A DNA stretch of 64,000 bases, from the NCBI GenBank assembly GCA_012838555.1, contig DUOZ01000115.1, positions 2,226-66,225 on the forward strand, read 5' to 3'. The stretch comes from a bacterium (GTDB lineage: Bacteria; Bacillota_I; Bacilli_A; RFN20; DUOZ01). The notes beneath the pieces are model-generated. The model was not told where the DNA came from and searched no databases. It was given only the letters and a program-made list of their open reading frames with translations. A program made the translations under genes and the position numbers. Position 1 is the first letter of the stretch; every line of letters begins with the position of its first letter. Positions 3,373 to 64,000 of this stretch are shown here, one piece after another.

Positions 3373-3373
3373 A

Positions 3374-45484: not shown

Positions 45485-45518
45485 TTAGAAAAAAGAGGCG
45501 AACTTGTAAAATCGCCTC
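45485..45518 (-). terminator. Rho-independent terminator between the tandem degV genes
   Basis: The stem AGAGGCGA/TCGCCTCT has a 10-nt loop. On the minus strand it is followed by TTTTTCT. Confidence 0.55.
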
Positions 45519-45549
45519 TATTTTAAATGTTAAATTTGAATTTAAATAA

Positions 45550-46419
45550 TTAACGATAATTACCAAAGAAGAATACTGCAATTGTATTAGGCCCTGCATG
45601 AGCTCCAATAACTGGACCAATCGGACTAATAACGATGTCTTTAACATCAAATTTTTCTTTGATTAACTCTGCCATAAATTCTGCATCTTCCTTACAGTCT
45701 CCATGTGAGATAAAGACTGTTTGACTATCATTACTAATGCGTTCTTCAATCTTTTTAACAATATCTTTGAAGGCTCCTTTTCTACCTCTAACAGTGTTTA
45801 AAGGTACTAAACGACCCATATCATCAACGTAAAGGACTGGTTTAAGTTGTAAGACAGTACCTAGGAATGCCTTAGTTGATGATAATCTACCACCTCTTTT
45901 AAGATGACCTAGATCATCAACAGTGAATAAATGACATAGTTTTAATTTGTTTTCTTCAACATAAGTAGCAACTTCATCGATTGATTTACCTTGTTTTTTT
46001 AGATTAAGGGCACTATAGACTAATAACCCTTGACCTAAAGAAGCACTTAAAGAATCAATGGCAATGATTTTGTTATCTTTATATTTATCTTCAAGTTCAT
46101 TTTTAGCGACGACTAGAGAATTGTAGGTTCCACTTAATGCTGATGAAAAAATAATGCATAATACATCTTTTCCTTCTTTTAATATTGGTTCAATTGCTTC
46201 AATAAATTCATTAGGTGAAAGCTGTGAAGTAGTCGCGCTTTTATGATTTCTTAATGAATCATAAAAATCTTTATGTGACATTTCTCTTTCATCACTATAA
46301 TTTTTATAATTCTTGCCATCAATGTTAAAGCCAAGCGGTAATACTTGCAAGTGTTCCTTTTCAATTAAATAAGTAGGTAAGTCACTGCACGAATCGGTTA
46401 AAATAATATAATCTTTCAT
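45550..46419 (-). CDS. DegV-family fatty-acid-binding protein (tandem paralogue 1)
   Basis: The start is at the internal ATG 46419, with a strong GGAGGAG RBS. The protein is 289 aa, MKDYIILTDSCSDLP. The longer ORF from 46479 lacks an RBS. Confidence 0.85.
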   Translation of the reverse strand: MKDYIILTDSCSDLPTYLIEKEHLQVLPLGFNIDGKNYKNYSDEREMSHKDFYDSLRNHKSATTSQLSPNEFIEAIEPILKEGKDVLCIIFSSALSGTYNSLVVAKNELEDKYKDNKIIAIDSLSASLGQGLLVYSALNLKKQGKSIDEVATYVEENKLKLCHLFTVDDLGHLKRGGRLSSTKAFLGTVLQLKPVLYVDDMGRLVPLNTVRGRKGAFKDIVKKIEERISNDSQTVFISHGDCKEDAEFMAELIKEKFDVKDIVISPIGPVIGAHAGPNTIAVFFFGNYR

Positions 46420-46594
46420 TTGTATCTCCTCCTTAAATGAATATATAAAGTCGGTTAATGTCGTTTTATGTAGTTTCAAAAACCCATCATCTAGTTTTCA
46501 AAACTATTTTATAATGGTATAATACTACTTGTCAATAAATATGTGCTTGAACTATTAAATAGAATATTCTAAAATATGAACGGAGTTGATTTTT

Positions 46595-48352: not shown

Positions 48353-48377
48353 GATGAGCTGAATGGCTCATCTTTTT
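48353..48377 (+). terminator. Rho-independent terminator after the metallophosphoesterase gene
   Basis: The stem GATGAGC/GCTCATC has a 6-nt loop and is followed by TTTTT. Confidence 0.6.
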
Positions 48378-48497: not shown

Positions 48498-48537
48498 ATG
48501 AAAGCGCTTGACAGTTTTTTAAAATGTGTTGTATTAT
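48498..48537 (+). promoter_or_regulatory. Promoter of the fructan-locus operon with overlapping cre-like element
   Basis: The -35 TTGACA is at 48508-48513. An 18-nt spacer leads to the -10 TATTAT at 48532-48537. The upstream cre-like sequence ATGAAAGCGCTTGACA lies at 48498-48513, with a perfect left half TGAAAGCG. Confidence 0.4.
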
Positions 48538-48550: not shown

Positions 48551-48568
48551 TGTGGTATCGATACCACA
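48551..48568 (+). promoter_or_regulatory. Perfect 18-bp palindrome (LacI-family-type operator) between promoter and RBS
   Basis: TGTGGTATCGATACCACA is centred on CG. It lies 13 nt after the -10 and 4 nt before the AAGGAGG RBS. Confidence 0.6.
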
Positions 48569-48585: not shown

Positions 48586-49920
48586 GTGAAAAGAGTTAAA
48601 AAGTTTGTTACACTTGCTTTAGCTGCCATGATGCTAGTTGGTTGTGGTGGCAATACTGGTGAAGAAGAATCACCTGATGTAAAAATTGTTAAAATTTGGG
48701 TTCACAAATCCGAAGCAGAAGATGAAGGTAAGGTGTACTCAGCTGTTGCAGATTTATTTAATGAACAAGAAATTAAGACTGCTGATGGCACCAAAACAAT
48801 TAAGATGAAATTAGAATTTAAGAACAGTGCTGAAACACTTTCTAATGCTATTAGTTCAGAAATTCTAACTGGTGGTCTTCCAGATATCGTTGCTGTTGAC
48901 GCTCCTAATATTGCAGCGTATGCAGATGCAGGAATCTTAACAAGTATAGATGATTATTTAACGACAGAAACCATTGATAGCTACGTAAGTAGTGTTATCG
49001 AACAAAGTACTATTGATGGAAAAATTTATGCTTTATCTGCTATGGATGCTCCAACAGGACTTTATTACAACAAAGACTTACTAAAACAAGTAGGTTATAC
49101 AGATGAAGATTTTGGAAGTATTGAAAATCCTTGGTCATGGGTTGATGTTAAAGAAGCTATGGCTAAGTTAAAAGAAAAAGGTTTATCTTATCAAATTAAA
49201 CTAAACCTTGGCTTTGGTGGAGACGAAGGATTAATGTATCTATATTCTGCTCTTGTTTACTCAGCTGGTGGAGACTTCATTACTAGCGAAGGTAAAACTG
49301 AAGGTGCTTTAAATAGTGAAGAAACATTAGCAGGTATTAGAGTCCTTGAAGATATCTTAAGAGTAGATACTAATGGCGATTCATGGTATTACAATGGTGC
49401 CAACACAGATGCTTTAGCAGCTGGTGAAGTTGCGTTTGAAGTCTTTGGCCCTTGGAGTATTGCATCTATTAAGAAAAATTATCCTGAATTTGTAAATAGT
49501 TATGATATTATGCCATTCCCAGTTTATGAAGATGAAAATGGTAATAAGGGAAGTTTAGCTGCTGGTAGTGGATCTTGGGGATTTGGTGTTACACCAAACG
49601 CTAAAGACAAAGACGCTGCAGCTAAAGTACTTGCTTACTTAACTGGACCAGAAGCAAGTAGATTATTATATGAATCAATTGGTACATTCCCAACACATAA
49701 ATCACTATTTGATGAAATTAGTGATTTCCATACAGGTCCATTAAATTCATTAGCAGTTATTTTAGAAAGAGCTGCGACACCACGTCCAAAAATGGTTAAC
49801 TATCCAAAACTAAGCAGTGGATACAGTAAAATCATTTCTTATATTGAAACAATGCATGAATCTGAAGAATATGACCTAGTTGGGTTTATCAATACACAAA
49901 TCGCTCAAATTGATAGATAG
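48586..49920 (+). CDS. ABC transporter substrate-binding lipoprotein (CUT1 / SBP_bac_1 family)
   Basis: It has a GTG start after GGAGG and a signal peptide with lipobox LVGC. The protein is about 444 aa with extracellular solute-binding protein family 1 topology. Confidence 0.8.
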   Translation: MKRVKKFVTLALAAMMLVGCGGNTGEEESPDVKIVKIWVHKSEAEDEGKVYSAVADLFNEQEIKTADGTKTIKMKLEFKNSAETLSNAISSEILTGGLPDIVAVDAPNIAAYADAGILTSIDDYLTTETIDSYVSSVIEQSTIDGKIYALSAMDAPTGLYYNKDLLKQVGYTDEDFGSIENPWSWVDVKEAMAKLKEKGLSYQIKLNLGFGGDEGLMYLYSALVYSAGGDFITSEGKTEGALNSEETLAGIRVLEDILRVDTNGDSWYYNGANTDALAAGEVAFEVFGPWSIASIKKNYPEFVNSYDIMPFPVYEDENGNKGSLAAGSGSWGFGVTPNAKDKDAAAKVLAYLTGPEASRLLYESIGTFPTHKSLFDEISDFHTGPLNSLAVILERAATPRPKMVNYPKLSSGYSKIISYIETMHESEEYDLVGFINTQIAQIDR

Positions 49921-49928
49921 GTCTTATT

Positions 49929-50861
49929 ATGAGTGTTAGTTCAGTAAAAAAACCTAAAAAAATGTATTTTAGGTTTATGGGAAAGAGTTACCGTATATCC
50001 GATACTATAATCGGATATACGTTCCTCTTACCAGCCTTAATACTGGGCATAATCTTCATTATTATGCCGATAGTCATATCTTTAGCTTATGCATTTACTG
50101 ATGCGAACTTATTAAAGTTGAATCAGGTTAATTTCGTCGGACTTAAAAACTTTGAATTCTTGATAAGTGATGAAACTTTATGGCAAGCATTCAAAAATAC
50201 GATGGAATTTGTTATTAAGGTAGTACCACTTCAGTTACTAACTGCACTAGGTCTAGCCTTACTTGTTAATAAGAAAATGAAAGGTAATACTTTCTTTAGG
50301 TGGGCATTCTTTGCTCCAGTTATGTTATCATTAGCAGTTACTTCGATGTTATGGATTAACTTGCTTAACGAACAAGATGGCTTAATTAATGCAATATTAA
50401 CGATGATGGGTTTACCAAAAGAAAAATTCTTAGGTGACCCTAAGATGGCGATGGATTTAATTGTTTTAATCTCAGCATGGCAAGGTGCAGGTTACCAAAT
50501 GTTAATCTTCTTGTCAGGCTTAAAAAATATTCCTAAAGAAATGTATGAAGCAGCAAGTATTGATGGTGCTAATAAAAGACAACAATTCTTTAGAATTACT
50601 TTACCAAGTATTAGACCAACCTTTTCATTCGTATTAATTACCATGCTCATTGGAGCCTTTAGATTAATTACTCAGCCGATGATCATGACACAAGGTGGTC
50701 CAATTAATAAGACTTTAACGATGTCTTATTATATTTATCAACAAGGTATCACTTACCGTGATGTAGGTTATTCAAGTGCGATTGCTCTAGTTTATACCAT
50801 CTTTATGGCAACAATTGCACTAACACTTCGAAAAATCACGGAAAAGGACAACACTGTTTAA
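49929..50861 (+). CDS. ABC sugar permease (MalF/UgpA-like)
   Basis: It has six TM helices and the EAA loop EAASIDGANKRQQFFRITLP. Confidence 0.8.
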   Translation: MSVSSVKKPKKMYFRFMGKSYRISDTIIGYTFLLPALILGIIFIIMPIVISLAYAFTDANLLKLNQVNFVGLKNFEFLISDETLWQAFKNTMEFVIKVVPLQLLTALGLALLVNKKMKGNTFFRWAFFAPVMLSLAVTSMLWINLLNEQDGLINAILTMMGLPKEKFLGDPKMAMDLIVLISAWQGAGYQMLIFLSGLKNIPKEMYEAASIDGANKRQQFFRITLPSIRPTFSFVLITMLIGAFRLITQPMIMTQGGPINKTLTMSYYIYQQGITYRDVGYSSAIALVYTIFMATIALTLRKITEKDNTV

Positions 50862-50869
50862 GGAGGGGT

Positions 50870-51787
50870 ATGATGGAACTTAAATTAAAAAGTGAATCAC
50901 TAAATTATATCCCGCCAAAAAAGAAAAGTTTAACACCAAAGAGAGTAATTAAATCAACATTATTTTACGCATTTATGCTACTACTAGCTGCTATATTCAC
51001 TTTCCCAGTTTTGTGGATGGTAGTAAACAGCTTTAAATCACAAAAAGAAGTATATGAAACCATTAATTCTCTTAGAACATTCCTACCATATACATGGGAT
51101 GTAACGAAATGGTTTGAATCATATAAGAATTTATTCTCAACATTTGACTATTTTGGTCAATCAATCATTAACAGTATCGTTTATGCCTCAATTACGATAA
51201 CAGGCGTCCTTATTATTAATTCAATCGCAGGTTATGCTTTATCTAGATTCGTATTCCCAGGTCATAAACTAATTGTTAATATTATTATCTTAATTCTAAT
51301 TGTCCCTGTGGAAACATCAATCGTTCCATTATACGTTATCTTAAAGAACTTGGGACTTTTAGACCCTAATCTAAGAATTATTGGTTATTTAATTCCTGGA
51401 TTAGTTAGTCCATTTTATATCTTTATGTTTAGAAATTACTTCTTAGGAATACCTAAAGAGTTAGAAGAGGCTGCTTATATTGATGGAGCAGGTAGATTAA
51501 AGACATTTTTTGGAATCATAATTCCGGTATCGTTACCAGTCTTTGCGACAGTTGCCATATTTACCTTTATGGGTTCATGGAATGAATATGTCTTTGCTCA
51601 ATTAATGTTCTCTTCTCCAGCTCAACAGCCATTACAAGTATTCCTACAGTTAATCAATAACTTTAATCCAAAAGATATATCCTTAGTAATGGCATCATTA
51701 ACATTCTCAACGATACCAATTGCGATTGTATATATCTTCTGTCAACGTTACATTGTCGAAGGTGTAGCATTCACAGGATTAAAATAA
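50870..51787 (+). CDS. ABC sugar permease (MalG/UgpE-like)
   Basis: It has six TM helices and the EAA loop EEAAYIDGAGRLKTFFGIIIP. Confidence 0.8.
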   Translation: MMELKLKSESLNYIPPKKKSLTPKRVIKSTLFYAFMLLLAAIFTFPVLWMVVNSFKSQKEVYETINSLRTFLPYTWDVTKWFESYKNLFSTFDYFGQSIINSIVYASITITGVLIINSIAGYALSRFVFPGHKLIVNIIILILIVPVETSIVPLYVILKNLGLLDPNLRIIGYLIPGLVSPFYIFMFRNYFLGIPKELEEAAYIDGAGRLKTFFGIIIPVSLPVFATVAIFTFMGSWNEYVFAQLMFSSPAQQPLQVFLQLINNFNPKDISLVMASLTFSTIPIAIVYIFCQRYIVEGVAFTGLK

Positions 51788-51808
51788 AAAAAGAAGGGAG
51801 AGGAAAAA

Positions 51809-54178
51809 ATGAAAAAGACATTATCACTTATATTTATGATGTCAATCATTGTTTCCTTTCTAGGTTGTGCTCAAACTAATATGAACAGTGATTCTCAATT
51901 TATCAATGATTATAAAGATCCTAATCAAGATTCATTACTCTTATCTTTATCTTTTGATGAAGAAAGTGGTAATCAAGTAGAGGATAAAATTACTTCATCT
52001 TTAGCAACTATTAATTATGTGTTTAATGATGCTAAATATAAAAGTAATGAAGATCCTCAAAGGACAAAAAGGTCTGCTGTGAGCGGAAGTGCTCTAGCAT
52101 TTGATGGATATTCTAATTATATTGAGTATCCTTCATCAACTATTCAAGTTCATGGACCTTACTTAACAATTGATGTCTTTGTAAGTCCAAGGATGTTTGA
52201 ATGGGATGACCCATATGCCTTATATAACGGTAATGAAAACTTACAAGTAATACTAGGTCAATATAACAAGGATAGTAAAGCTGGATTTGTATTAGGGATG
52301 CATAAATATGGTAACTTTTCATTCCAAGTTGGACTTGGAGATAGATGGGTTAAGTTATGGAATGAATGGAATAAGTTAGACCGTTATAAATGGAATCATT
52401 TAACTGCCGTCTATAATGGTGAAACTGGCTTCATGGCTTTATATAAAAATGGTGAGATTGTTAACTATGAAGAAAAAGTATTTGGAAGTATAGCACCTGC
52501 TAATGTTCCTCTTTACATTGGTAAAAGTCATCAACCTCAACGTGTCGGAGTCTTTGAACTAAATATGTTTAATGGCTTAATGGATGAACTAAGAATTTAT
52601 AATAAAGCCTTAAATGAAGAAGATATCTATAACTATCATCAAAGTTATCTAATAGATGGAAGTATAAAAGAAGTTAAGTTTGAAGATGCTTGGTTAAATG
52701 CAGATATTTTAGATGATGATATCTATCATCCTAAATATCATGCAACACCCCCACAGCATTGGATGAATGAACCACACGCCTTATTTTATTACAAAGGTTA
52801 TTATCATATGTTCTATCAATTTAATCTTACCGGTCCTTATTGGCGACAAATCACTTGGGGTCATTGGGTAAGTAAAGATTTAGTTAGATGGGAACATGTT
52901 AAAGAAGCTATTGTCATGGATGAAAGAAGTGTTGTTAAAGACGGCGCTTGGAGTGGCAATATGGCTTATAAACAAGATGGAACTCCGGTCTTATTTATTA
53001 CAGCAGGTGATGATGGAAAGTCTTATGGACAATATAGTAATCAAAATATTGCTATCGCTGTCCCTAAAGACTTAAATGACCCTTATTTAACAGAGTGGGA
53101 AATCCATGATTCCTTAGTTGTAACTCATACTTCTAGTATGGGAAGAATGAATGAGTTTAGAGATCCTAATGTTTACTATGAAGATGGAGTTTACTATATG
53201 GTTGTTAGTGCTTCAAAACATGATGGAAAAGGAACAGCCTTATTATTTACAACAAGTGATGATTCATTTACATCATGGAATTATGAAGGGAATTTATTTA
53301 CACCAAAGAATTTCTATCCATACATGGGAAGCACTTGGGAATTGGTGAATTTAGTTAAAGTTCATAACGAAAGTAAAACATTGTCTAAATATCTATTCGT
53401 CTTTTCACCTTCAGGAAGTGGTTCAGATAATGATGTTTATTATTATCTAGGAGATTTTGATAAAAAGACAAAGAGATTTATACCTGAACATGATGATCCA
53501 CTCTTAATGGATTATGGAAATAATGTCTTTACTGGACCGACGATTTACACAGAACCTCATAGTGGAAGAGTCTTAATAAGTTCAATCTTACAAGATCAAA
53601 GAACAGGTAGAGAACATTATGATGCAGGTTGGGCCTTTATGGCTGGAATACCTCGAGAATTATCTTTAGATTATGAAGGTAATTTAAAGGTCACACCGAT
53701 TAAAGAATTAGAGACTTTAAAAGGTGATTCATTAGCAAGTTTAAAAGATACATCAATAAATGTTGCTAATGAAGAGTTAGACAAAGTGGATAGCTCTCAA
53801 GTCTATGTGCATTTAAAAATTAGTACATCTGAGTCTACTAACTTTGGTTTAAAAATTAAAAAAGATGAATTAGGTCGAGAAACAATCATTGGTTATGATA
53901 AATCGACAAAGCAAATATATATTGATACCACTAATTCAGGAAATACAAATGTCAAAGGTATTTTTGGAGGGTATCTAGAATTAATTGATGGTCAAACACT
54001 TGATTTAGAAGTTTATGTCGATGGAGCGACAATTGAGTGTTACATCAATGGATATAAGACAATCTCTGCGATGGTTTATAACACTGCTACTAAGATGGAA
54101 TTCTATGCGGATGATAAAGTAATGATTGATTTACTAGAAATAAACTATATGCAGAGTATCAAGGAGGGGCTTAAATGA
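51809..54178 (+). CDS. GH32 lipoprotein A: N-terminal LamG/ConA-like domain plus GH32 beta-propeller and C-terminal beta-sandwich, with variant active-site motifs
   Basis: The lipobox is FLGC. The LamG-like domain reads LSLSFDEESGNQVEDK...AFDGYSNYIEY. GH32 block A is HWMNEPHALFYY, with Glu at 52769-52771. FSGS is present as WSGNMAY, RDP as FRDPNV, and the EC motif as TWELVN. Confidence 0.8.
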   Translation: MKKTLSLIFMMSIIVSFLGCAQTNMNSDSQFINDYKDPNQDSLLLSLSFDEESGNQVEDKITSSLATINYVFNDAKYKSNEDPQRTKRSAVSGSALAFDGYSNYIEYPSSTIQVHGPYLTIDVFVSPRMFEWDDPYALYNGNENLQVILGQYNKDSKAGFVLGMHKYGNFSFQVGLGDRWVKLWNEWNKLDRYKWNHLTAVYNGETGFMALYKNGEIVNYEEKVFGSIAPANVPLYIGKSHQPQRVGVFELNMFNGLMDELRIYNKALNEEDIYNYHQSYLIDGSIKEVKFEDAWLNADILDDDIYHPKYHATPPQHWMNEPHALFYYKGYYHMFYQFNLTGPYWRQITWGHWVSKDLVRWEHVKEAIVMDERSVVKDGAWSGNMAYKQDGTPVLFITAGDDGKSYGQYSNQNIAIAVPKDLNDPYLTEWEIHDSLVVTHTSSMGRMNEFRDPNVYYEDGVYYMVVSASKHDGKGTALLFTTSDDSFTSWNYEGNLFTPKNFYPYMGSTWELVNLVKVHNESKTLSKYLFVFSPSGSGSDNDVYYYLGDFDKKTKRFIPEHDDPLLMDYGNNVFTGPTIYTEPHSGRVLISSILQDQRTGREHYDAGWAFMAGIPRELSLDYEGNLKVTPIKELETLKGDSLASLKDTSINVANEELDKVDSSQVYVHLKISTSESTNFGLKIKKDELGRETIIGYDKSTKQIYIDTTNSGNTNVKGIFGGYLELIDGQTLDLEVYVDGATIECYINGYKTISAMVYNTATKMEFYADDKVMIDLLEINYMQSIKEGLK

Positions 54179-56532
54179 AAAAAACCTTAACTAAAATTTT
54201 AACATTTATCTTTATATTATTAGTAGCTTCTAGTTGTAATTCTTCTGGTAGTGATAAAGATTTAATGCTATATCTTTCATTTGATGAAGGAAGTGGCAAT
54301 AAGGTTGAAGATAAAGCTAAGAAATTAGATACAGCGACAGTTCAATATGTCTTTAATAATCCAAAGTTTCAACCCTCACCTCAAGATCCTCAGTGGCGAG
54401 AAAACGGTGTGATAAATGGAGCGTTACTGTTTGATGGGTATTCAAATTATATCCGTTATAACTATGAAGACATTAAGATAAGAGGTTCTTCTTTATCAAT
54501 AAGTGTGTTTGTAGCCCCTAGAGCTTTTGAATGGGATGACCCAAATGCTAAAGAAAAGGGTACTGATAAATTAACAGCGATTGCATCTCAATATAGTAAA
54601 GATACCAATAGTGGATTTATTCTAGGTTATCAACGTCACGGTGCATTTAGTTTCCAAGTTGGTCTTGGAGATCGTTGGTTAACTATTTGGGATGAGGGAA
54701 ATCCACTTAAGAAGTATGAATGGAACCATATAAGTGCGGTATTTGATGGTAAAAAAGGTAGAATGGCTCTTTATTTAAACGGAGAATTAATTAATGAAAA
54801 ATTATTTTTTGAAGGAGCTGAAATCGCACCAGCATATGATGAACCATTATTAATTGGTAGAAACAATTATCCTGGTTCAAATGCAACTGCTAGTTTAAAT
54901 ATGGTAAGTGGATTACTAGATGAATTAAAAATTTATAACCGAGTTTTAAGTACTAGTGAGATTGAAAAATATGTTAACGGTATTGACATACCAAAATTAG
55001 AATATGAAGATATTGCGTTAGTTAATATTCTGCAAGATGATTATTACAAAACTCAATATCATGGTGGTCCATATCAACATTGGATGAATGAACCACATGC
55101 GCCACTTTATTATAACGGTTATTATCACTTATTCTTCCAACATAATTTATTTGGTCCTTATTTTAGAAATATTGGTTGGGGACATTTAGTAAGTGAAGAT
55201 ATGGTCAATTGGCGTCCATTAAAGGAAATTATTATGCCAAGTGCAAATACAGTAGCACCTGATGGAGTTTGGTCAGGTGGAGCCACTTATGATAAAGATG
55301 GTGTACCAGTTTTATTCTTCACAGCAGGTAATGATTCATTTAGAAAAGATGGATTAATCAGCAATCAAAATATCGGTATTGCTCGACCTAAAGATAAAAA
55401 CGATCCATTACTTCAAGAATGGGTTGTAGGTGAAGAATTAGTAATTGCTCAACAGCCTGGTCAAGGTAAACCGGGTGAATTTAGAGATGCTCACCTGTTT
55501 ATTGAAGATGATACTTATTATTTCTTAATTGGTTCAGCAAGCACTAAACCAAATACAGGTGGAACAGCACTTCTATTTACTACTAAGGATGATTTAGAAA
55601 ACTGGACTTATAAAGGTCAATTATTTGAGATTCAAAATCAACCTGGTGATTTAGGTAGTGTGTGGGAGTTACCAGTCTTGTTACCGGTTTATAACGAAGC
55701 TAAAACAATTAAAAAGTATGTCTTTATTATCTCGCCAGCACCAGCCGATAGAGCAGATAACGACATTTATTACTGGATAGGTGATTTTGATAAAGTAAAT
55801 GGACGCTTTATCCCTGATGCAAGTTTTGGTAATAAACCTAGACTGCTTGATTATGGAAACAACGTCTTTACAGGTCCTTCAGGATTTATTGATCCAAAGA
55901 CAGGTAAGGCAATTATCTTCTCAATTATGCAAGATCAAAGATTACCTGGACATGTTGCTAGTTCTGGTTGGGCTAATAGTGTTGGATTAGCTAGAGAAAT
56001 CTACTTAAATGATGATGGTAGTGATCTAAAGATTAGACCAGTTGAAGCAATTAAAAACTTAGAAGACAAAACTCTAGCCGAGTTTAAAAATAAATCAGTT
56101 AATGACGCTAATGCGTTATTAAAAGATGTTAAAGGAGATATGCTTTATATCCATGTTGAATTTAAAAATGTGAGTGCAAGTAACTTTGGAATTAAAGTTA
56201 GAAAGAATGACAAAGTACTTGAAGAAACAGCTTTCTACTATGATGTAACTACATCTACAGTAGGAGTTAGAACAGGACTTAGTGGAGCTTATAGTAGTAA
56301 CCAAAATATTGCAGGTAAATTCTATGGACCATTAAGTTTAGATGAAAACACATTAAAAATGGATTTATATCTAGATAGATCATTAATTGAAGGATTCTTT
56401 AACTCTGATAAAGCAATCTCAGCTCGAGTGTATCCTGATATCACCTCATTAGGAATTGAATTATTTGAAGAAGGTGGCACGGTCGAGATTAAGAATATGG
56501 TAGTTAAGACCATGCGCTCAATTTATGAATAG
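54175..56532 (+). CDS. GH32 lipoprotein B: paralogue of A with LamG-like N-terminal domain and variant motifs
   Basis: The lipobox is ASSC. The LamG-like domain reads LYLSFDEGSGNKVEDK...LFDGYSNYIRY. GH32 block A is HWMNEPHAPLYY, with Glu at 55090-55092. RDP is replaced by FRDAHL and the EC motif by VWELPV. It overlaps the upstream gene by 4 nt. Confidence 0.8.
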   Translation: MKKTLTKILTFIFILLVASSCNSSGSDKDLMLYLSFDEGSGNKVEDKAKKLDTATVQYVFNNPKFQPSPQDPQWRENGVINGALLFDGYSNYIRYNYEDIKIRGSSLSISVFVAPRAFEWDDPNAKEKGTDKLTAIASQYSKDTNSGFILGYQRHGAFSFQVGLGDRWLTIWDEGNPLKKYEWNHISAVFDGKKGRMALYLNGELINEKLFFEGAEIAPAYDEPLLIGRNNYPGSNATASLNMVSGLLDELKIYNRVLSTSEIEKYVNGIDIPKLEYEDIALVNILQDDYYKTQYHGGPYQHWMNEPHAPLYYNGYYHLFFQHNLFGPYFRNIGWGHLVSEDMVNWRPLKEIIMPSANTVAPDGVWSGGATYDKDGVPVLFFTAGNDSFRKDGLISNQNIGIARPKDKNDPLLQEWVVGEELVIAQQPGQGKPGEFRDAHLFIEDDTYYFLIGSASTKPNTGGTALLFTTKDDLENWTYKGQLFEIQNQPGDLGSVWELPVLLPVYNEAKTIKKYVFIISPAPADRADNDIYYWIGDFDKVNGRFIPDASFGNKPRLLDYGNNVFTGPSGFIDPKTGKAIIFSIMQDQRLPGHVASSGWANSVGLAREIYLNDDGSDLKIRPVEAIKNLEDKTLAEFKNKSVNDANALLKDVKGDMLYIHVEFKNVSASNFGIKVRKNDKVLEETAFYYDVTTSTVGVRTGLSGAYSSNQNIAGKFYGPLSLDENTLKMDLYLDRSLIEGFFNSDKAISARVYPDITSLGIELFEEGGTVEIKNMVVKTMRSIYE

Positions 56533-56546
56533 AGGTGGGAAATGAA

Positions 56547-58583
56547 ATGAAAAGAATAACTAGTTTGGTAATGATTGGTATTATGCTCTTATTGTTTGGA
56601 TGTAATGATACCACAGTAAAAGAAATTACTAACCCAAGCTTTGAAACAGGAACATTAAGAGGTTGGGAAATAAAAGGAGAAGCCTTTAGTAATAGTGGAG
56701 TTATCTTTGATGATAAAGATAGTAAAGGAAATTATTACAATCAAGAGGGAGACTTCTTCTTCTATGGTGGAAAAGCCAAAAAAGGCTCTGTTGGTGAATT
56801 GTTATCAAATGAATTTATTTTAAGTGGAAATGGATTAATCGGTTTTAAAATTGGAGCCGGTAAGAATTATGAAAAATGTTATGTTGCCTTAATTGATAGT
56901 AAGGGTAATGTACTTGTTACTCGAGGCAATTATGAATTCGATGAAAATGACTCTGCAGATACATTACACCGCGTAATCTTAGATGCATCGAGTCACGTTG
57001 GAAAAAAAGTAAGAATTAAGGTTGTTGATAATGATAGTGGTGTAGATGGATATAACTACATCAATGTTGATGACTTTATAGTGAATTATCAAGGAGTTGT
57101 AGAACCAGTGGGAAAAGTAGCCAAAGCACATCAGTATGTCTTAGATAACATGCACAAAGTTAATCCTCGTTATCGTCAGACATATCATGCAATGCCCCCG
57201 CTTAATTGGGGGAACGATCCGAATGGATTAATTTATTATCAAGGAAAAGGTCATTTATTCTTCCAATTCAATCCTTATGATTCTGTTTGGGGTCCAATGC
57301 ATTGGGGGCATTACACTACCGAAGACTTTATTAAGTGGGAGTTGCAACCAGTTGCATTAGCACCAGACAAGGATTATGACAATCAATTTGGAGCCTTTAG
57401 CGGTACAGCGATTGAAAAGGACGGAAAGCTCTACTTAATGTATACAGGTGTAGCTAATGACTTACAACAACAAGCTCTAGCAGTCTCAAGTGATGGAATT
57501 ACGTTTGAGAAATTAAACCGTAATCCAGTTATAAGTGTCAATCAATTACCAAAAGGAGCTTCACCAAAAGACTTTAGAGATCCAAAAGTCTTTTATAAGG
57601 ACGGAAGTTACTATGCCATTATTGGTAGTAGGATGAACGGGTATGGAATGATTTTAATGTATAAATCTCATAATTTAACTTCATGGGAATATGTAGGAGA
57701 AGTTATGAATAGTTCCAATCCAAGTGAACCTAATTTCTATCAACTAAGTGGAGTTTATGAATGTCCTGATTTCTTTGAAATTGATGGTAAAGAAGTGATT
57801 ATTGCATCACCCCAATTCTTACCTCAAGATGGAAACAAATTCGAGAACATCCATTCAGTTGTCTATATGATTGGTAACTTTAACTATGAGACTGGAAGGT
57901 TTACTTATGATGAATTTATTGAATTTGACAGTGGATTTGATTTCTATGCGGCTCAAACATTAAAACATGAAGATGGTAGAACAATCTTAATCGCTTGGAA
58001 ACAAATGTGGGACCGTACTTTAGTTACTCAAGCAGATAACTGGGTAGGCTCATACACATTACCAAGAGAATTAACTTATAAAAATAACCGCATTTATCAA
58101 GCTCCAGTTAGAGAAATCGAAAATTATCGTAAGAACCATGTGAGCTATACTAATCAAGTTATTGATGAAAAATTAAAACTTGATAAGGTTGTTGGAACGA
58201 CTGTTGAATTAGAGTTTGAATTAGAAATGAATAATGCTTCTAAAGCAGGAGTTAAATTATTCAAAGGAGCTTATAACGAAACAGTCTTATCTTATGACAA
58301 AGCTACACAAACATTAACATTTGACCGCTCTAGAAGTGGTAAGTCAATTTCAGGAGCAGAATCAAATGACTTCTATCGTGCTGAAACGATTCCATTAATT
58401 GATGGAAAAATTAAATTAAGAATTTTCCTTGATGTATCAAGTGTGGAAGTCTTTATTAACGATGGATATATGACTATGACAAGTAATGTTTATCCAGATG
58501 AGTTTGATGTTGGCATTGAGTTCTTTTCTGAAAATGGTCAAGCAAGAATTACATCATTAGATAAATATGACATTATAGTTTAA
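56547..58583 (+). CDS. GH32 lipoprotein C: canonical beta-fructofuranosidase/fructanase with N-terminal CBM-like module
   Basis: The start MKRIT follows an AGAGGTGGG RBS, and the lipobox is LFGC. The N-terminal module runs from NPSFETGTLRGW to YINVDDFIV. Canonical motifs are present: NWGNDPNGLIYY (Asp at 57216-57218), FSGTA, FRDPKV and YECPDFF. Confidence 0.85.
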   Translation: MKRITSLVMIGIMLLLFGCNDTTVKEITNPSFETGTLRGWEIKGEAFSNSGVIFDDKDSKGNYYNQEGDFFFYGGKAKKGSVGELLSNEFILSGNGLIGFKIGAGKNYEKCYVALIDSKGNVLVTRGNYEFDENDSADTLHRVILDASSHVGKKVRIKVVDNDSGVDGYNYINVDDFIVNYQGVVEPVGKVAKAHQYVLDNMHKVNPRYRQTYHAMPPLNWGNDPNGLIYYQGKGHLFFQFNPYDSVWGPMHWGHYTTEDFIKWELQPVALAPDKDYDNQFGAFSGTAIEKDGKLYLMYTGVANDLQQQALAVSSDGITFEKLNRNPVISVNQLPKGASPKDFRDPKVFYKDGSYYAIIGSRMNGYGMILMYKSHNLTSWEYVGEVMNSSNPSEPNFYQLSGVYECPDFFEIDGKEVIIASPQFLPQDGNKFENIHSVVYMIGNFNYETGRFTYDEFIEFDSGFDFYAAQTLKHEDGRTILIAWKQMWDRTLVTQADNWVGSYTLPRELTYKNNRIYQAPVREIENYRKNHVSYTNQVIDEKLKLDKVVGTTVELEFELEMNNASKAGVKLFKGAYNETVLSYDKATQTLTFDRSRSGKSISGAESNDFYRAETIPLIDGKIKLRIFLDVSSVEVFINDGYMTMTSNVYPDEFDVGIEFFSENGQARITSLDKYDIIV

Positions 58584-58741
58584 AAATTTAATTTGATTAT
58601 TTAGGTCATAAAAAAGGAAAAAGGTTAGATTCATCCAAGTCATGTCGGGGTGATGATCAGGGAGAATCAAACCTTGTATATATAGCATACCACTTTTATG
58701 GCCTGAATATAAACAAAAAATGCAAAATGGAGGTAAAAAGT

Positions 58742-61492
58742 ATGAAAAACTTAGTAAAACGCATTTCAATCACCCTCCTTGCAGTGTTGACGCTATCAAT
58801 TGCATCAGCATGTAACAATCAAGGAGGTACTTCCATCCCTACAACTATCGAAAACGGTGGTTTTGAAGAAGGTACTCAAGAAACCTGGACAGGATGGACA
58901 AGAACAGGAACTGCCTTTTCATCTCGTGGTGTTGTTAATGATACACAGGTTAATGGCATAACTGTAGATAAAGAAGGCGAATATTGGTTTAGTGGACTAG
59001 ATGGTGGAACTCAAAAGATGACTGGTACACTTACATCAAATGTCTTTAAATTAACAGGAACAGGCCATATCGCTTTTAAAATGGGCGCAGCAAAATATGG
59101 AGACAAAATCTTTGTTGAATTCATTGAAGATGGTACTGATACTGTTTTAGCAAAAGTTACAAACAGTGATTACAATGAACCATGGATTACTGACCAAATG
59201 ATTCGTAAAATTGTTGACTTATCAGAACATTTAGATAAGAATATCTATATTAAAATTACTGATAATGATAACAATGATGATTATGGTTATGTTAACCTTG
59301 ATGACTTTGTTATTTGTCTAACTCAAGAAGATGTTAATAAATATACTACAGAAAGAAATAACCAATTAGAAGCTTATTCTGAACCAGAATTTGAAGAAGA
59401 TGAAACTTCAACAACAATTCAAAACCCTGGTTTTGAAACTGGAGATTTAACTGGTTGGAAAATCTTAAGTGGTACAGCCTTTGGTGGAAACGTAATTGTT
59501 CCTACTTCACAATACTACTGGACAGATAGATCAGTTTATGGTGAAGGTGAATACTACTTAGATGGCAATAACAATGGTGAAATTGCTGAATCTGCAGTAG
59601 GTGTAGTTCGTTCATCTAAATTCACTCTTGCAGGCGATGGCTTTATTTCATTCATGATTGGTGCTGCACCAACTAATTGTTATATTGCTATTAATGATGG
59701 TGTTACTGGTGAAGAATTAATTAAAGTTACAAATACTACCTTTAAAGACCCTGCTTTACCATTAACATTAAGAAGAGTTTATGTTGATGCCTCTGCTTAT
59801 TTAAATAAAGTATTATATATCACAATCGTGGATAACAATCCTTCAAGTGGTTTTGCCTTTATCACTGCGGATGATTTCCATGTAAGTATGACTGAAGAAG
59901 AAGTTGTTTCATTAATGAAATATCAATATGATAAGATTATGAATGAAACTTATACTGATTCATACAATTCATTATTACACTTACAAAACTATTATCAAAA
60001 CTATGAATATCCATTTGAACTTCCTGCATTAGTCTTTGAAAATAAAGCAAGTGGAGTTGTTAGTGGAATTAAAGAAGATGTTAACTTAAATGATTTCATT
60101 AAAGATGTCGTTATTAAATACGGTAGTGTAGATGTTCCAGCTGCAATTACTAAAGTTGTCTTTGAAGAAGAAACATTTACAGATGGTTTCGATTCATTTG
60201 ATTTAGCAAATGAAGGTACATATGTAGTTTACTATGGTGCTACATATGAAGGAGAAACTATTGAAGATTCATTCAATATCGTTGTGGCAGGTAACGTTAA
60301 CGTTGTTAACGGTGGCTTTGAAACTGGCGATATGACTGGTTGGACAGTTGTTGAAGGTGAAATTGATGACGGTGTTATCGATGCTGAAACATACTGGGGC
60401 GAAAAGATTGCTTATAACCGTCATGGTAACTATCACTTTGATGGTTGGACAGCAACTAGCGATGAACCAGCAGGATATGTCTTACGTTCAAATACATTTG
60501 TTCTATCAGGAACAGGTTGGGCTTCATTCATGATGGGTGGAAACGCTGCTAGAGTACGTGTTAGTTTAGCAGATGGTACACCAATTGGATACTTTACTAA
60601 CTATAAATTCCTTGATGAAGGATTCCCACTCTTAGCTACAGGTGGAAGATGGGCTACAATGACTAGATACTTTGTTGATTTATCAGCTTACCTAGGCGAA
60701 GAAGTCTATGTTGAATTAATCGATGACGCTAATGCTGCTGGTTGGGCAGTTGCCTTCTTTGATGAAATTAACTTCTACCATGAAACTACACCAGATGTAG
60801 AAAATGGATTTGATACAGTTCTAGAATCTAATGAAACTGGTGAAGAAGTTCAAATCCACTGGGAATATGCAGATAATGCTTATATCATTAATGGTGGCTT
60901 TGAAACTGGTGACATGACTGGATGGACTAGTGAAGAAGTTAAAGTTAATGCTGTTATTAGCGATTCATTCTACTGGAATGAAAAACTTCCATACAATCAA
61001 ACTGGTAATTACCACTTTGATGGATGGAGTTCAGGTGTAAATGAAAATGAAACTTATGCTTTAAGATCAACAGTATTTACACTACATGGAACAGGATATA
61101 TCTCTGTTAAAATGGGTGGAAATGCTGCAGCAGTTAAAGTTTACTTAGAAGATGGAACTCTTGTAGGTTTCTATAAACAAAACCGTTTCAGCGATACTAA
61201 CTTCCCTAACTTAGATCAAGGTGGTTCATGGGCTGATATGGGTAAATACTTCTTTGACTTAAGTGATTATGTAGGTCAAAAACTATATATCGAATTATTA
61301 GATATTGAAGTTGAAGGTTGGGCAGTTGCCTTCTTTGATGACGTAATTACTTACTATGAAGAATTACCTGATATTGATAATGGCTTTGACACTGTAACTT
61401 TATACTCTCTAGATGATGATGGTGAATTTACAGTTGAACGTAGTCATAACATTCCATGGCAATTAGCATCTAATCTAGTAGAAGCTGAATAA
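58742..61492 (+). CDS. Surface lipoprotein made of four tandem CBM-like beta-sandwich modules (homologous to the N-terminal module of GH32-C) and no catalytic domain
   Basis: It has a GGAGG RBS and a signal peptide with lipobox IASAC. The four repeats start at NGGFEEGT (about 58847), NPGFETGD (about 59417), NGGFETGDMTGW (about 60305) and NGGFETGDMTGW (about 60893). Each ends in a ..DDF.. motif. Confidence 0.6.
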   Translation: MKNLVKRISITLLAVLTLSIASACNNQGGTSIPTTIENGGFEEGTQETWTGWTRTGTAFSSRGVVNDTQVNGITVDKEGEYWFSGLDGGTQKMTGTLTSNVFKLTGTGHIAFKMGAAKYGDKIFVEFIEDGTDTVLAKVTNSDYNEPWITDQMIRKIVDLSEHLDKNIYIKITDNDNNDDYGYVNLDDFVICLTQEDVNKYTTERNNQLEAYSEPEFEEDETSTTIQNPGFETGDLTGWKILSGTAFGGNVIVPTSQYYWTDRSVYGEGEYYLDGNNNGEIAESAVGVVRSSKFTLAGDGFISFMIGAAPTNCYIAINDGVTGEELIKVTNTTFKDPALPLTLRRVYVDASAYLNKVLYITIVDNNPSSGFAFITADDFHVSMTEEEVVSLMKYQYDKIMNETYTDSYNSLLHLQNYYQNYEYPFELPALVFENKASGVVSGIKEDVNLNDFIKDVVIKYGSVDVPAAITKVVFEEETFTDGFDSFDLANEGTYVVYYGATYEGETIEDSFNIVVAGNVNVVNGGFETGDMTGWTVVEGEIDDGVIDAETYWGEKIAYNRHGNYHFDGWTATSDEPAGYVLRSNTFVLSGTGWASFMMGGNAARVRVSLADGTPIGYFTNYKFLDEGFPLLATGGRWATMTRYFVDLSAYLGEEVYVELIDDANAAGWAVAFFDEINFYHETTPDVENGFDTVLESNETGEEVQIHWEYADNAYIINGGFETGDMTGWTSEEVKVNAVISDSFYWNEKLPYNQTGNYHFDGWSSGVNENETYALRSTVFTLHGTGYISVKMGGNAAAVKVYLEDGTLVGFYKQNRFSDTNFPNLDQGGSWADMGKYFFDLSDYVGQKLYIELLDIEVEGWAVAFFDDVITYYEELPDIDNGFDTVTLYSLDDDGEFTVERSHNIPWQLASNLVEAE
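60305..61367 (+). repeat. Intragenic tandem duplication (modules 3 and 4) with near-identical DNA stretches
   Basis: A 26-nt identical run GGTTGGGCAGTTGCCTTCTTTGATGA occurs at 60741 and again at 61317. AACGGTGGCTTTGAAACTGG occurs at about 60308, with a 1-mismatch copy at about 60889. Confidence 0.6.
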
Positions 61493-61500
61493 TCCTTTAA

Positions 61501-61537
61501 TCAGAGGATGAAAAAGTCTCATCCTCTGATTTATTTT
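61501..61537 (+). terminator. Strong rho-independent terminator after the CBM-repeat lipoprotein gene
   Basis: An 11-bp stem TCAGAGGATGA/TCATCCTCTGA has a 7-nt loop and is followed by TTTATTTTAT. Confidence 0.7.
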
Positions 61538-61567
61538 ATGGTATATTATTAGTAAATAAATAAGTAG

Positions 61568-62548
61568 GTGGTCGATTTGGTTCAGATTAAAGATGTAGCA
61601 AAAAGAGCCGGATGCGGAACGAGCACTGTATCAAGAGTTCTAAATAATTCTGGCTATGTCTCAAAAGAAACACGAGAAAGAATTGAAAGAGCAATCAAAG
61701 AATTAAAATATGTGCCTAATCAGATGGGAAGAAATCTTAAGCGACTTAGTTCGCATTTAGTAGCATTATTTGTTCCAACAATCTCTCACCCATTCTTCTC
61801 TAAAATTGCATATTACATTGAAAATTATCTTTATAAATATGGGTTTAGAATGATTATAGTATCTTCTCAAGATAATAAGGAAAAAGAAGTTAAACTTCTT
61901 GATATGATAAAAAATAAACAAGTTGATGGGATTATCTTTATTACGACTCATATTCATGATGATGTTAATTTTGAAGGAATGTCTATTGTTACATTAGATA
62001 GAAAAATACCAGGAGTCCCTTGTATTGCCTCAAATAACTATGAGTCAACATATGAAGCGGTTGAATATTTAGTTAAACTAGGTTGTAAAAAAATTGGTTA
62101 TATCGGTGGTTTAACTAAAGTAGGTTCTGAAGTTGAAAAAAGATATGAAGCTTATTGTGATGTCATGAATAAGTATCAATTAGAGATTATTGATTGTCGT
62201 AAAGAAATATTACACGGAGAAGAGTACAATATCTCAAAAGAGTTTATTGATGAAAATCCTGATTTGGATGCGATTTTTGCTCAAAGTGATATATTTGCCC
62301 ATTGTTGTTATCTAATTGAATTGCAAAGAGGTAGAAAGATACCTGAAGATATTAAGATTGTTGGATATGATGGTGTTATGGATGAAATTTACCAACATCC
62401 TACTTTTACTGTTGTTAGGCAAAACTTAGATAAATTAAGTGAAAAAATTGTTCAACAATTAGTTAGACGAATGAAAAAGAAAAAGTGTGAGAAACTTTCA
62501 ATTGTACCTGCTGATTTTATTATTGGTGAAACTACTGAGGTGAAATAA
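61568..62548 (+). CDS. LacI-family transcriptional regulator
   Basis: It has a GTG or TTG start. The N-terminal HTH is IKDVAKRAGCGTSTVSRVLNN. The C-terminus is a periplasmic-binding-protein-like sugar-binding domain. Confidence 0.85.
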   Translation: MVDLVQIKDVAKRAGCGTSTVSRVLNNSGYVSKETRERIERAIKELKYVPNQMGRNLKRLSSHLVALFVPTISHPFFSKIAYYIENYLYKYGFRMIIVSSQDNKEKEVKLLDMIKNKQVDGIIFITTHIHDDVNFEGMSIVTLDRKIPGVPCIASNNYESTYEAVEYLVKLGCKKIGYIGGLTKVGSEVEKRYEAYCDVMNKYQLEIIDCRKEILHGEEYNISKEFIDENPDLDAIFAQSDIFAHCCYLIELQRGRKIPEDIKIVGYDGVMDEIYQHPTFTVVRQNLDKLSEKIVQQLVRRMKKKKCEKLSIVPADFIIGETTEVK

Positions 62549-62549
62549 G

Positions 62550-63479
62550 ATGATTTTATGTATTGGTGAAATACTTGTTGATTTAATTGGTAAAGAAGTA
62601 AATGGACGTACTAGTTATGATGTTTTTGCCGGAGGTGCTCCATTTAACGTAGCTTGTGGAATTAAAAATTTCGGAGGCAATGTTATATTTATCGGTAATG
62701 TTGGTGACGACATTATGGGTAGGTTTTTATTAGACTTCGCTAATAAAAGAAGTTTTGATAAATTATTAATTTCTCTAGATCAAGAACATAATACAACACT
62801 TGCTTTTGTTAAAAATGATGAAGATGGTGAAAGAAGTTTTTGCTTTCATCGTAAAAATACTGCTGATTATTTTTTTAATACAGATTACTTTGCTGAAATT
62901 GAAAATGCTGATATTGTTCATGTAGGTACTTTAATGTTATCAAATGAAGAAGGAAGAAAAATGGCAGACTTAATCATTGAAACAACAAAGAAAAGTGGTA
63001 AGTTATTAAGTCTTGATATTAACTTTAGAGATGATATTTATAAGAGCAAAGAAGAAGCAATTAAAGTATATCAACATTATGCTTCAAAGGCTGATATAAT
63101 TAAATATTCACTAGATGAACTTCAATTATTTTCATCTAAGCATGATATATATCAAGCTTTAAATGAAATAGCAAAGCCAAATCAATTAGTCTTTTTAACC
63201 TTAGGTAAAGAAGGTTCACTATGTTATTACAATCAAAATGTCGTTAAATCACATTCAATAAAAGTAATGTCTGTGGATACAACTGGAGCTGGTGATGCCT
63301 TTTATGGTGCGATTTTATCCCAACTTGACCGTATAGGATTTGAAAACTTTGTTAAGGATAAGAATGTAATTAAAGAGGTGTTAAGATTTGCTAATCTTAC
63401 TGGAGCTTTAACAACAACAAAAAAAGGCGCGATTGATGCCTTACCTACTTTAGAGGAGATTAATACATTTACTAAGTAA
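62550..63479 (+). CDS. Fructokinase (pfkB/ribokinase family)
   Basis: Its N-terminus reads ILCIGEILVDLIG and it carries the C-terminal TTGAGDAF motif. It is 309 aa and lies 1 nt after the LacI stop. Confidence 0.8.
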   Translation: MILCIGEILVDLIGKEVNGRTSYDVFAGGAPFNVACGIKNFGGNVIFIGNVGDDIMGRFLLDFANKRSFDKLLISLDQEHNTTLAFVKNDEDGERSFCFHRKNTADYFFNTDYFAEIENADIVHVGTLMLSNEEGRKMADLIIETTKKSGKLLSLDINFRDDIYKSKEEAIKVYQHYASKADIIKYSLDELQLFSSKHDIYQALNEIAKPNQLVFLTLGKEGSLCYYNQNVVKSHSIKVMSVDTTGAGDAFYGAILSQLDRIGFENFVKDKNVIKEVLRFANLTGALTTTKKGAIDALPTLEEINTFTK

Positions 63480-63480
63480 T

Positions 63481-64000
63481 ATGAAAAAAAGAAGTTTCAT
63501 GAATAAGCTCATAATGGGCTTTGATAACAAAAAGAACTTAAAACCTAAAAATCGCTTTGAAGTTTTTAAGTTGATGTTTTATGAATCACCACTTAAACTT
63601 GTTTTACTGTCCTTTTCTATTTTTATATCAACTCTACCTTTAGTTATTTTATTAGTAAGTAAAGATATTTATATAATGTATGGAGATGCAAGTATTAAAG
63701 ATAATCCTTATGGCTTATTTTTAATTAACTTTTTTACATACACTATATCAATACCTTTAATTATTATTGTTTTTGTTAACCTAGGTGGAGTTTTTTATGT
63801 TATTAAAAAAATGGCATGGGATGAAACTCTAGATTTTAAATTTGATTATAAAGATGGAATTAAAAAATCATTAAAAGAGAGTGTTTTATTAGGATTAATT
63901 CTTGGATTATCAATCGATGTAATGATGACTAATTTATATTTTTTACGATTAGATTTAGGTTTTGATCCAATTATTACTACAATTATGACTTATTTATCAA
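63481..64000 (+). CDS. Membrane protein, partial at window end (DUF624/YesL-like?)
   Basis: The reading frame is open from the ATG at 63481 to the window end, more than 173 codons. The N-terminus MGFDNKK is followed by hydrophobic helices. Its position after sugar-utilisation genes resembles YesL-like proteins. Confidence 0.35.
   Translation, partial: MKKRSFMNKLIMGFDNKKNLKPKNRFEVFKLMFYESPLKLVLLSFSIFISTLPLVILLVSKDIYIMYGDASIKDNPYGLFLINFFTYTISIPLIIIVFVNLGGVFYVIKKMAWDETLDFKFDYKDGIKKSLKESVLLGLILGLSIDVMMTNLYFLRLDLGFDPIITTIMTYLS

Follow-up and report, generated by a model that had tools for sequence, protein, structure and literature searches.

We analyzed a 64,000-nucleotide (nt) stretch of bacterial DNA (contig DUOZ01000115.1, positions 2,226 to 66,225 of the forward strand), referred to here as the window. 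Between 48.5 and 64 kb, entirely on the + strand, it carries a locus that we interpret as a lipoprotein-anchored Gram-positive polysaccharide utilization locus (PUL) for inulin-type fructan; we put the probability of this reading at about 72%. The open reading frame (ORF) list and scans with Pfam and NCBIfam bore out the genes, and the order, that an earlier reading of the letters (the sequence-only reading) had listed: a substrate-binding protein (SBP), two permeases, three proteins of glycoside hydrolase family 32 (GH32), a four-module protein, a LacI-type regulator, and a fructokinase. That reading had also proposed a fructan-utilization locus in which every exported part is a lipoprotein, and the domain content, the conservation of the lipoboxes, and the conserved synteny described below all support it.

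In our model, a lipoprotein of 921 amino acids (aa), with two tandem pairs of modules of the CBM38 type (CBM, carbohydrate-binding module), would hold fructan at the membrane surface. Two lipoproteins with a LamG domain, a GH32 domain, and a Glu nucleophile, GH32_1 and GH32_2, would cut the polymer internally into oligosaccharides, and GH32_3 would trim the chains to fructose and short fructo-oligosaccharides (FOS). The SBP would then hand the products to the two permeases, with import powered by an orphan ATPase of the MsmK/MsmX type encoded elsewhere, and the fructokinase would convert fructose to fructose-6-phosphate.

Lipoboxes of the five exported proteins

The locus opens with the gene for a CUT1-family ABC substrate-binding lipoprotein (48587 to 49920; Pfam SBP_bac_1, E = 3.8e-36), followed by those for ABC permease 1 (49929 to 50861) and ABC permease 2 (50870 to 51787), both matching BPD_transp_1. 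The three GH32 genes come next: GH32_1 (51809 to 54178), GH32_2 (54175 to 56532), whose start overlaps the GH32_1 stop by 4 nt, and GH32_3 (56547 to 58583). All three products match Pfam Glyco_hydro_32N and 32C (E = 1e-55 to 3e-89). The gene for the noncatalytic 921-aa lipoprotein lies at 58742 to 61492.

As had been proposed, all five exported proteins carry lipoboxes (PROSITE PS51257-type matches), and these are kept in homologues. With the best-supported starts, the signal peptides are MKRVKKFVTLALAAMMLVGC for the SBP (Cys at residue 20), MKKTLSLIFMMSIIVSFLGC for GH32_1 (lipobox FLGC, Cys20), MKKTLTKILTFIFILLVASSC for GH32_2 (ASSC, Cys21), MKRITSLVMIGIMLLLFGC for GH32_3 (LFGC), and MKNLVKRISITLLAVLTLSIASAC for the binding protein (SAC). 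Each N-terminus has 2 to 4 basic residues, a hydrophobic stretch of 10 to 14 residues, a Cys at position 19 to 24, and then a linker rich in Gly, Ser, Asn, and Thr; a basic n-region, an h-region, and [LVI][ASTVI][GAS]C within about 35 residues were found in all five. No PS51257-type lipobox was found in the permeases, LacI, or the kinase. Among the 59 window ORFs of ≥100 aa, the background was one further lipoprotein (26187 to 27125, lipobox LLGC, 312 aa, without a Pfam match) and one false positive on an FAD-binding motif; the same 59 ORFs contained no LPXTG motif.

If the lipoboxes were chance matches or artifacts of wrongly assigned starts, the proteins would be ordinary secreted or cytoplasmic ones. 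The pattern scan of the window did give that one false positive, and the longest-ORF starts of three genes are not the true starts (GH32_3 can be read from GTG at 56535, the binding protein from ATG at 58727, and the SBP from an ATG discussed below). With the best-supported starts, however, all five N-termini are textbook signal-peptidase-II signals. The lipobox Cys of the 921-aa protein is invariant across 32 aligned homologues, including sequences from metagenome-assembled genomes (MAGs) of Clostridia, and the majority of the SBP and LamG-GH32 orthologues in 80 related loci have a lipobox. We therefore consider chance or misassigned starts highly improbable.

We also considered a wall-less, Mollicutes-like host as the main cause of the lipid anchoring and rejected it, because orthologues in MAGs of Lachnospiraceae, Oscillospiraceae, and Christensenellaceae have lipoboxes. 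Given this conservation in homologues, lipid anchoring is a conserved family trait that is explained neither by chance nor by a wall-less host alone. The genes lgt and lspA are not in the window. Lipidation and surface exposure of the five exported proteins are predicted from sequence.

The predicted binding protein, the GH32 enzymes, and their probable substrate

The 921-aa protein has no Pfam family above threshold, and its family is annotated only as hypothetical. The four modules claimed for it are present, each about 165 residues long, at approximately residues 36 to 200 (M1), 224 to 392 (M2), 524 to 690 (M3), and 713 to 885 (M4), and all four share homology with the module at the GH32_3 N-terminus (BLASTP E = 8e-24 to 9e-10). 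They are arranged as tandem pairs of CBM38-type β-sandwiches, M1-M2 and M3-M4, together with an Ig-like domain at residues 435 to 520 and helical linkers. An exact-sequence look-up with both start codons found no match to the protein. A word-indexed search gave 389 matches, and a profile search gave 1,307 cluster representatives at E ≤ 1e-3, 288 of them at E ≤ 1e-30, among 1.84 billion. The closest homologue (72% identity) is from a MAG labeled "Bacilli bacterium," and among the matches listed there are numerous MAGs obtained from the rumen and from the gut of rabbits, chickens, mice, and humans.

A sequence search of the PDB with the whole binding protein returned nothing meaningful, and a profile of the module compared with the PDB and Pfam gave only an N-terminal strand motif, NGGFETGxLxGW, and weak matches to CBM_4_9. 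CBM66, the levan-end-binding module of Bacillus subtilis SacC (4AZZ), was rejected as a candidate; neither the sequence profile nor a fold search detected it. Among the matches listed in a scan of species-representative genomes, the same modules occur in Paenibacillus within giant secreted GH32 proteins. One of these giants is 82% identical to O52973, the cycloinulooligosaccharide fructanotransferase (CFTase) of Bacillus circulans MCI-2554, and 83% identical to the CFTase of Paenibacillus polymyxa. M3-M4 aligns with residues 77 to 378 of the P. polymyxa CFTase P0295 (34% identity, E = 3e-42) and M1-M2 with residues 58 to 393 (E = 5e-29); M2 also aligns with the C-terminal CFTase module at residues 1169 to 1325 (37% identity).

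CBM38 was defined experimentally as residues 32 to 389 of the Paenibacillus macerans CFTase, a region made up of two β-sandwich domains that binds both inulin and levan (PMC10076258); another description in the literature has CBM38 as an insertion in the GH32 propeller. If equal numbering is assumed for the P. macerans enzyme, which supplied these boundaries, and the P. polymyxa orthologue used in our comparisons (both 1333 aa), then M1-M2, M3-M4, and the GH32_3 module are homologous to the founding module region. We infer that the 921-aa protein is two tandem CBM38-type units on a lipid anchor, with a predicted function in binding inulin or other fructans.

In both GH32_1 and GH32_2, a Laminin_G_3 (LamG) domain at the N-terminus precedes the GH32 domains. 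The two enzymes are paralogues, 44% identical, and each aligns end to end with the core of the P. polymyxa CFTase (GH32_1 with residues 398 to 1146, 37% identity, E = 4e-163; GH32_2 with residues 392 to 1146, 41% identity, E = 7e-180). Their catalytic set is E/D/E, in the motifs WMNEPH, FRDPN, and WELV in GH32_1 and WMNEPH, FRDAH, and WELP in GH32_2; GH32_3 has the canonical D/D/E set (WGNDPN, FRDPK, and YECPDF).

The change of the nucleophile from Asp to Glu could mean that GH32_1 and GH32_2 are catalytically dead, lectin-like proteins and that GH32_3 is the sole active enzyme: WMNEPH stands in for WMNDPN in both, and GH32_2 also has RDA in place of RDP. However, Glu is the working nucleophile of the fungal endo-inulinase INU2 (Glu43 in YWMNEPNG; PMC5245892), and active CFTases likewise have Glu at this position (WMNEAH). 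Because CFTases and INU2 share this residue, we take the Glu form to be active and tied to internally acting, inulin-cleaving enzymes. GH32_1 and GH32_2 retain the Arg-Asp pair and the acid/base Glu, and WMNEPH is present in almost every member examined, which argues for purifying selection on the active site. That the two enzymes are dead thus seems to us scarcely credible.

In a neighbor-joining tree of 41 cores, the true CFTases formed a tight Paenibacillus clade, and GH32_1 and GH32_2 fell into two separate clades of lipoprotein enzymes. The homology to CFTases (EC 2.4.1.248) covers the LamG/Glu GH32 core over about 750 residues and does not extend to orthology, judged by clade and by the WMNEAH motif. 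By these comparisons, GH32_1 and GH32_2 are subfamily relatives of CFTases, not orthologues, and GH32_1 is predicted to be inulin-active and probably endo-acting.

GH32_3 is built differently. Its single N-terminal module (about residues 27 to 190), which has no Pfam annotation and is of the CBM38 type, is 37% identical to CFTase residues 1168 to 1326 (E = 3e-22). The best solved relatives of the protein are 7vco (E = 8.8e-90), 7bwb, and 3pig, and it passes the cut-off of NCBIfam scrB_fam. Its nearest relatives are exo-acting β-fructofuranosidases and sucrose-6-phosphate hydrolases, and it is predicted to be an exo-β-fructosidase.

Because the modules match the CBM38 region and two of the GH32 proteins belong to the Glu-nucleophile, CFTase/endo-inulinase-like subfamily, inulin-type fructan is the most likely substrate. 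The same architecture could instead serve levan (a β-2,6 fructan) or mixed or branched fructans in nature. The CBM38 region of CFTase binds both polymers in the published work, GH32 specificity is hard to predict from sequence, and the LamG-GH32 paralogues are divergent enough (44% identical) that they could target different linkages. We give levan or mixed fructans a real but minor chance and retain inulin-type fructan as the predicted substrate.

The CFTases are also the only characterized relatives that we found for GH32_1 and GH32_2 (37% to 41% identical across the entire LamG-GH32 core and alike in having Glu as the nucleophile). The LamG-GH32 lipoproteins might act as transferases, turning surface inulin into cyclic or nonreducing oligofructans to be imported by a dedicated SBP. 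Such a route would hide the sugar from competitors, as the pathway of CGTase (cyclodextrin glucanotransferase) and cyclodextrin does. Paenibacillus offers a possible parallel. In the loci L048, L053, L056, L063, and L065 to L070, the CFTase gene is preceded by a gene for a LamG-GH32 paralogue of about 758 aa without a signal peptide (WMNEPH), and the same loci encode an ABC importer and another cytoplasmic GH32 protein. This arrangement fits import and intracellular opening and suggests that cells take up the cyclofructans made by CFTase and open them internally; no account of a pathway of this kind turned up in the literature searched. In the window locus, however, GH32_1 and GH32_2 lie outside the tight WMNEAH clade of true CFTases and have WMNEPH, there is no cytoplasmic GH32 to open an imported ring, and a surface exo-β-fructosidase such as GH32_3 fits hydrolytic breakdown better. 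A transferase route is therefore unlikely in our judgment.

A more specific proposal, and in our view a long shot, is that the binding protein and the LamG-GH32 lipoproteins together form, on the membrane, a noncovalent "split" counterpart of the single-chain Paenibacillus CFTase, a fructanotransferase whose cyclic or nonreducing products from inulin would be available only to cells with the matching SBP. If it were true, it would be a fructan counterpart of cyclodextrin sequestration, widespread in gut Clostridia and Bacilli. Hydrolysis at the cell surface remains our preferred reading.

Comparative genomics ties the binding protein to the LamG-GH32 enzymes. In the 57 loci with a stand-alone binding protein, its gene adjoins a LamG-GH32 gene in 43; in 8 the two are in the same operon with only GH32_3-type genes between them, which is the arrangement in the window; and in 6 a contig edge intervenes. 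Thus, wherever the contig allows, the two are in the same operon in all 57. Proteins of Paenibacillus provide a Rosetta-stone fusion of the same parts, joining binding modules, LamG, GH32, a further module, and, in some, SLH anchors (L048).

The nine-gene cassette is found in identical order, with different flanks, in the closest relative (L087, GCA_050174575.1), and it recurs with small changes in order or content in L007, L008, L033, L039, and others; MAGs that carry the recurring cassette genes are labeled Christensenellaceae, Clostridia, Bacillales, and Staphylococcaceae. The GH32_3-type gene varies by locus, encoding a lipoprotein with the module, a cytoplasmic protein of about 500 aa, or both (L037, L040, L049, L081). 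In L044 (8446 to 9954) and L045 (8439 to 9971), GH32_3 orthologues of about 500 aa occupy the same operon position and have neither a signal peptide nor a CBM38-type module. As judged from these predicted products, the location of the exo-enzyme, surface or cytoplasm, changes from lineage to lineage.

Import, regulation, and boundaries of the locus

The sequence-only reading had stated that no ABC ATPase is encoded in the locus, and we reached the same result: there is no MsmK-type ATPase in the window or in the 6 kb past its end. The latter sequence comes from L001, a metagenome contig found by looking up the fructokinase, which has an identical fructokinase and neighbors that are 98% to 100% identical. 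The ABC ATPases that the window does encode are all fused exporter-type or MacB-like proteins. One is a fused exporter-type ABC protein at 10982 to 12709, and it adjoins two adjacent ORFs (938 and 719 aa; 15141 to 20131), each with an N-terminal ABC ATPase motif, that look MacB/FtsX-like and are unrelated to sugar import. Among the 86 loci fetched, an MsmK-like ATPase is encoded within 10 kb in only 1. The literature on Firmicutes amply documents multitask orphan ATPases, MsmK and MsmX, that are shared by several CUT1 importers (PMC7658222). A missing ATPase is the norm for this type of locus, and its absence fits the use of an orphan MsmK/MsmX protein.

The absence of a cytoplasmic GH32, also noted earlier, was upheld by tblastn, which found no further GH32 sequence anywhere in the window, and none is present in the 6 kb downstream. 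The nearest solved relatives of the SBP are all oligosaccharide binders, GacH and MalE among them, although they are distant (best E = 7e-17), and a cytoplasmic GH32 is encoded in several syntenic loci whose SBP is related to that of the window. FOS import is favored because the SBP is of the oligosaccharide (CUT1) type and because sister loci have a cytoplasmic GH32; together these suggest that FOS is imported and that a cytoplasmic GH32 is encoded elsewhere in the genome. Uptake of fructose or sucrose is equally consistent with a surface exo-enzyme and the lack of a cytoplasmic GH32 here.

Several of these results weigh against an inulin PUL of the kind that we propose. GH32_1 and GH32_2 lie in clades separate from the CFTases and have WMNEPH, not WMNEAH; therefore, inulin specificity and endo action cannot be transferred to them with confidence, and the roles assigned to proteins of these lipoprotein clades are predictions. 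Compared over its whole sequence, GH32_1 is no closer to a fungal endo-inulinase (3rwk, E = 5e-30) than it is to exo-acting enzymes (3pig, E = 7.5e-38). The CBM38 boundaries were carried from one Paenibacillus CFTase to another, and the module is reported to bind levan besides inulin (PMC10076258). Finally, with an oligosaccharide-type SBP and no cytoplasmic GH32 in the locus, the pathway as encoded is incomplete if FOS is what is imported.

The left boundary of the locus is a terminator-like hairpin (8-bp stem followed by a T-run; 48353 to 48372, + strand) that closes an unrelated upstream metallophosphoesterase gene, the ORF of which matches Metallophos. The best promoter-like site between 48.2 and 64 kb is of the sigma-70 type (TTGACA, 18-nt spacer, TATTAT; 48508 to 48537, + strand); it agrees with the consensus at 11 of 12 positions and is 50 nt 5' of the SBP start. 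That start had been placed at about 48586, in agreement with the true one, the GTG at 48587, which follows the Shine-Dalgarno sequence GAAGGAGGA. The longest-ORF ATG of the SBP, at 48550, is 1 nt 5' of a perfect 18-bp palindrome and is not the real start.

The palindrome, TGTGGTATCGATACCACA, has a central CG, lies between the −10 box and the ribosome-binding site (48551 to 48568), and is a putative LacI-family operator. It is unique in the window, where 0.04 chance matches were expected. A strict regular expression of this site found no copies in the other loci. A loose palindrome search of the loci with upstream sequence found TGGAAACGTTTCCA-type palindromes 5' of the SBP genes of L008, L044, L045, and L049, and these have the TGGnAnCGnTnCCA frame in common with the window site. 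The palindrome is probably the operator to which the LacI protein of the locus binds. One promoter/operator, presumably under LacI control, drives a 13-kb structural operon from the SBP to the binding protein.

The operon ends at a strong intrinsic terminator (13-bp stem followed by a T-run; 61499 to 61531, + strand) directly 3' of the binding-protein gene. Because this terminator precedes them, the genes for the LacI-family transcriptional regulator (61568 to 62548; Pfam and NCBIfam matches) and the PfkB-family fructokinase (62550 to 63479; Pfam) form a separate downstream unit. The best NCBIfam match of the kinase is fructokinase (E = 5e-65), under the equivalog cut-off of that model. Scans of the window for tRNAs and Rfam families found nothing.

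The last gene, clipped by the window end (63482 to 64000), encodes a multipass membrane protein that is 278 aa long in L001, and its membership in the locus is doubtful. It had been called DUF624-like, a label that does not hold: the full-length 278-aa orthologue has no Pfam match at E ≤ 0.01, to DUF624/YesL or otherwise, and the gene is not conserved. Its NCBIfam match to the MusI family is below threshold (E = 4.7e-6; 26.6 bits versus a cut-off of 160). In L001 the kinase is followed by this gene and one for a 131-aa protein (10965 to 12227), neither with a Pfam family, and then by unrelated genes. Both are absent from L087, the closest syntenic relative, and are probably not part of the conserved cassette.

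Relation to known systems and the host

The locus had been likened to a PUL of the Bacteroidetes. The functional logic is indeed alike, but the concept is not new, having been formalized as the Gram-positive PUL (gpPUL), with a published minimum definition and with fructan examples that have GH32, an ABC importer, LacI, and a fructokinase (Sheridan et al. 2016, PMC5320581). The window locus has each element of that definition: degrading enzymes (three GH32 proteins), a transport system (an SBP and two permeases, with the ATPase absent), and a regulator (LacI). Because gpPULs, including those for fructan, and shared MsmK/MsmX ATPases have already been described, the locus is of a known kind. 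What is new is the stand-alone CBM38-type lipoprotein, the CFTase-like architecture split into lipoproteins, and the lipid anchor on every exported part.

The fructan gpPULs Eub-3 and Eub-4 (Eubacterium rectale and Roseburia inulinivorans; PMC5320581) share with the window locus a GH32, an ABC importer, a LacI-type regulator, and a fructokinase. The window locus differs in that its three exported GH32 proteins are all lipoproteins and none is visibly cytoplasmic, in having a stand-alone, noncatalytic, multi-CBM lipoprotein with CBM38-type rather than CBM66 modules, and in its two LamG/Glu-nucleophile enzymes. The CFTases of P. macerans, P. polymyxa, and B. circulans MCI-2554 contain the same three blocks (CBM38-type, LamG, and Glu GH32; 29% to 41% identity) in one secreted polypeptide, some with SLH anchors; here the blocks are on separate lipoproteins outside the CFTase clade, and cyclizing activity is not implied.

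The Bacteroides fructan PUL BT1757-1765, with SusC/SusD, the endo-levanase BT1760, and a surface glycan-binding protein, follows the same logic of lipoprotein binder plus endo-enzyme, oligosaccharide import, fructokinase, and regulator. In contrast, the window locus serves a cell without an outer membrane, uses an ABC importer instead of a TonB-dependent transporter, and is nonhomologous apart from the GH32 fold. No SusC or SusD domain was found in any protein of the locus, and the likeness to Sus-like PULs is therefore one of analogy. The CUT1 importers of Streptococcus pneumoniae and B. subtilis that depend on the orphan MsmK or MsmX likewise have an SBP and two permeases with no nucleotide-binding protein in the operon. 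The 921-aa protein also resembles Sas6 of Ruminococcus bromii, a stand-alone, noncatalytic, multi-CBM surface protein that is found beside enzymes, binds starch via CBM26 and CBM74, and is held by a dockerin; in contrast, the 921-aa protein is lipid-anchored and has CBM38-type modules.

The window has a GC content of about 30%. Its GatB is 100% identical only to metagenome proteins, and the nearest named relatives are Erysipelotrichaceae (Beduini and Coprobacillus, about 59%). By these sequence comparisons, the host is an uncultured low-GC lineage of Bacilli related to Erysipelotrichales.

At 19 to 4109 of the window there is a pectin/hexuronate module, consisting of a GH28 polygalacturonase fragment (Pfam) and then ORFs that resemble KDPG aldolase, KDG kinase, and GntR (N-terminal sequences only); more than one plant polysaccharide therefore seems to be used by the organism. 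A GH2 β-galactosidase of 952 aa without a signal peptide (33210 to 36068) stands alone between unrelated genes. A tandem pair of paralogous − strand ORFs (44542 to 46479) and a third copy (8264 to 9115) look by eye like the DegV family (fatty-acid binding). Between about 26000 and 28500, GC skew changes from negative to positive, with the cumulative-skew minimum there, and gene orientation changes from − to + near 26 kb; the skew change may merely reflect gene orientation.

Inulin is the most widely used prebiotic, but little is known about its capture by most gut Firmicutes; cell-sorting work has shown that many of them bind inulin at their surface (PMC10721620). The locus offers a candidate for this surface capture, a widespread family of predicted lipid-anchored CBM38-type binders genetically locked to Glu-nucleophile GH32 enzymes. 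It further connects the CFTases used in industry with a far larger, uncharacterized enzyme subfamily. If the binding and enzyme activities are confirmed, fructan loci in gut metagenomes would be better annotated, and new endo-inulinases or fructanotransferases might come to light.

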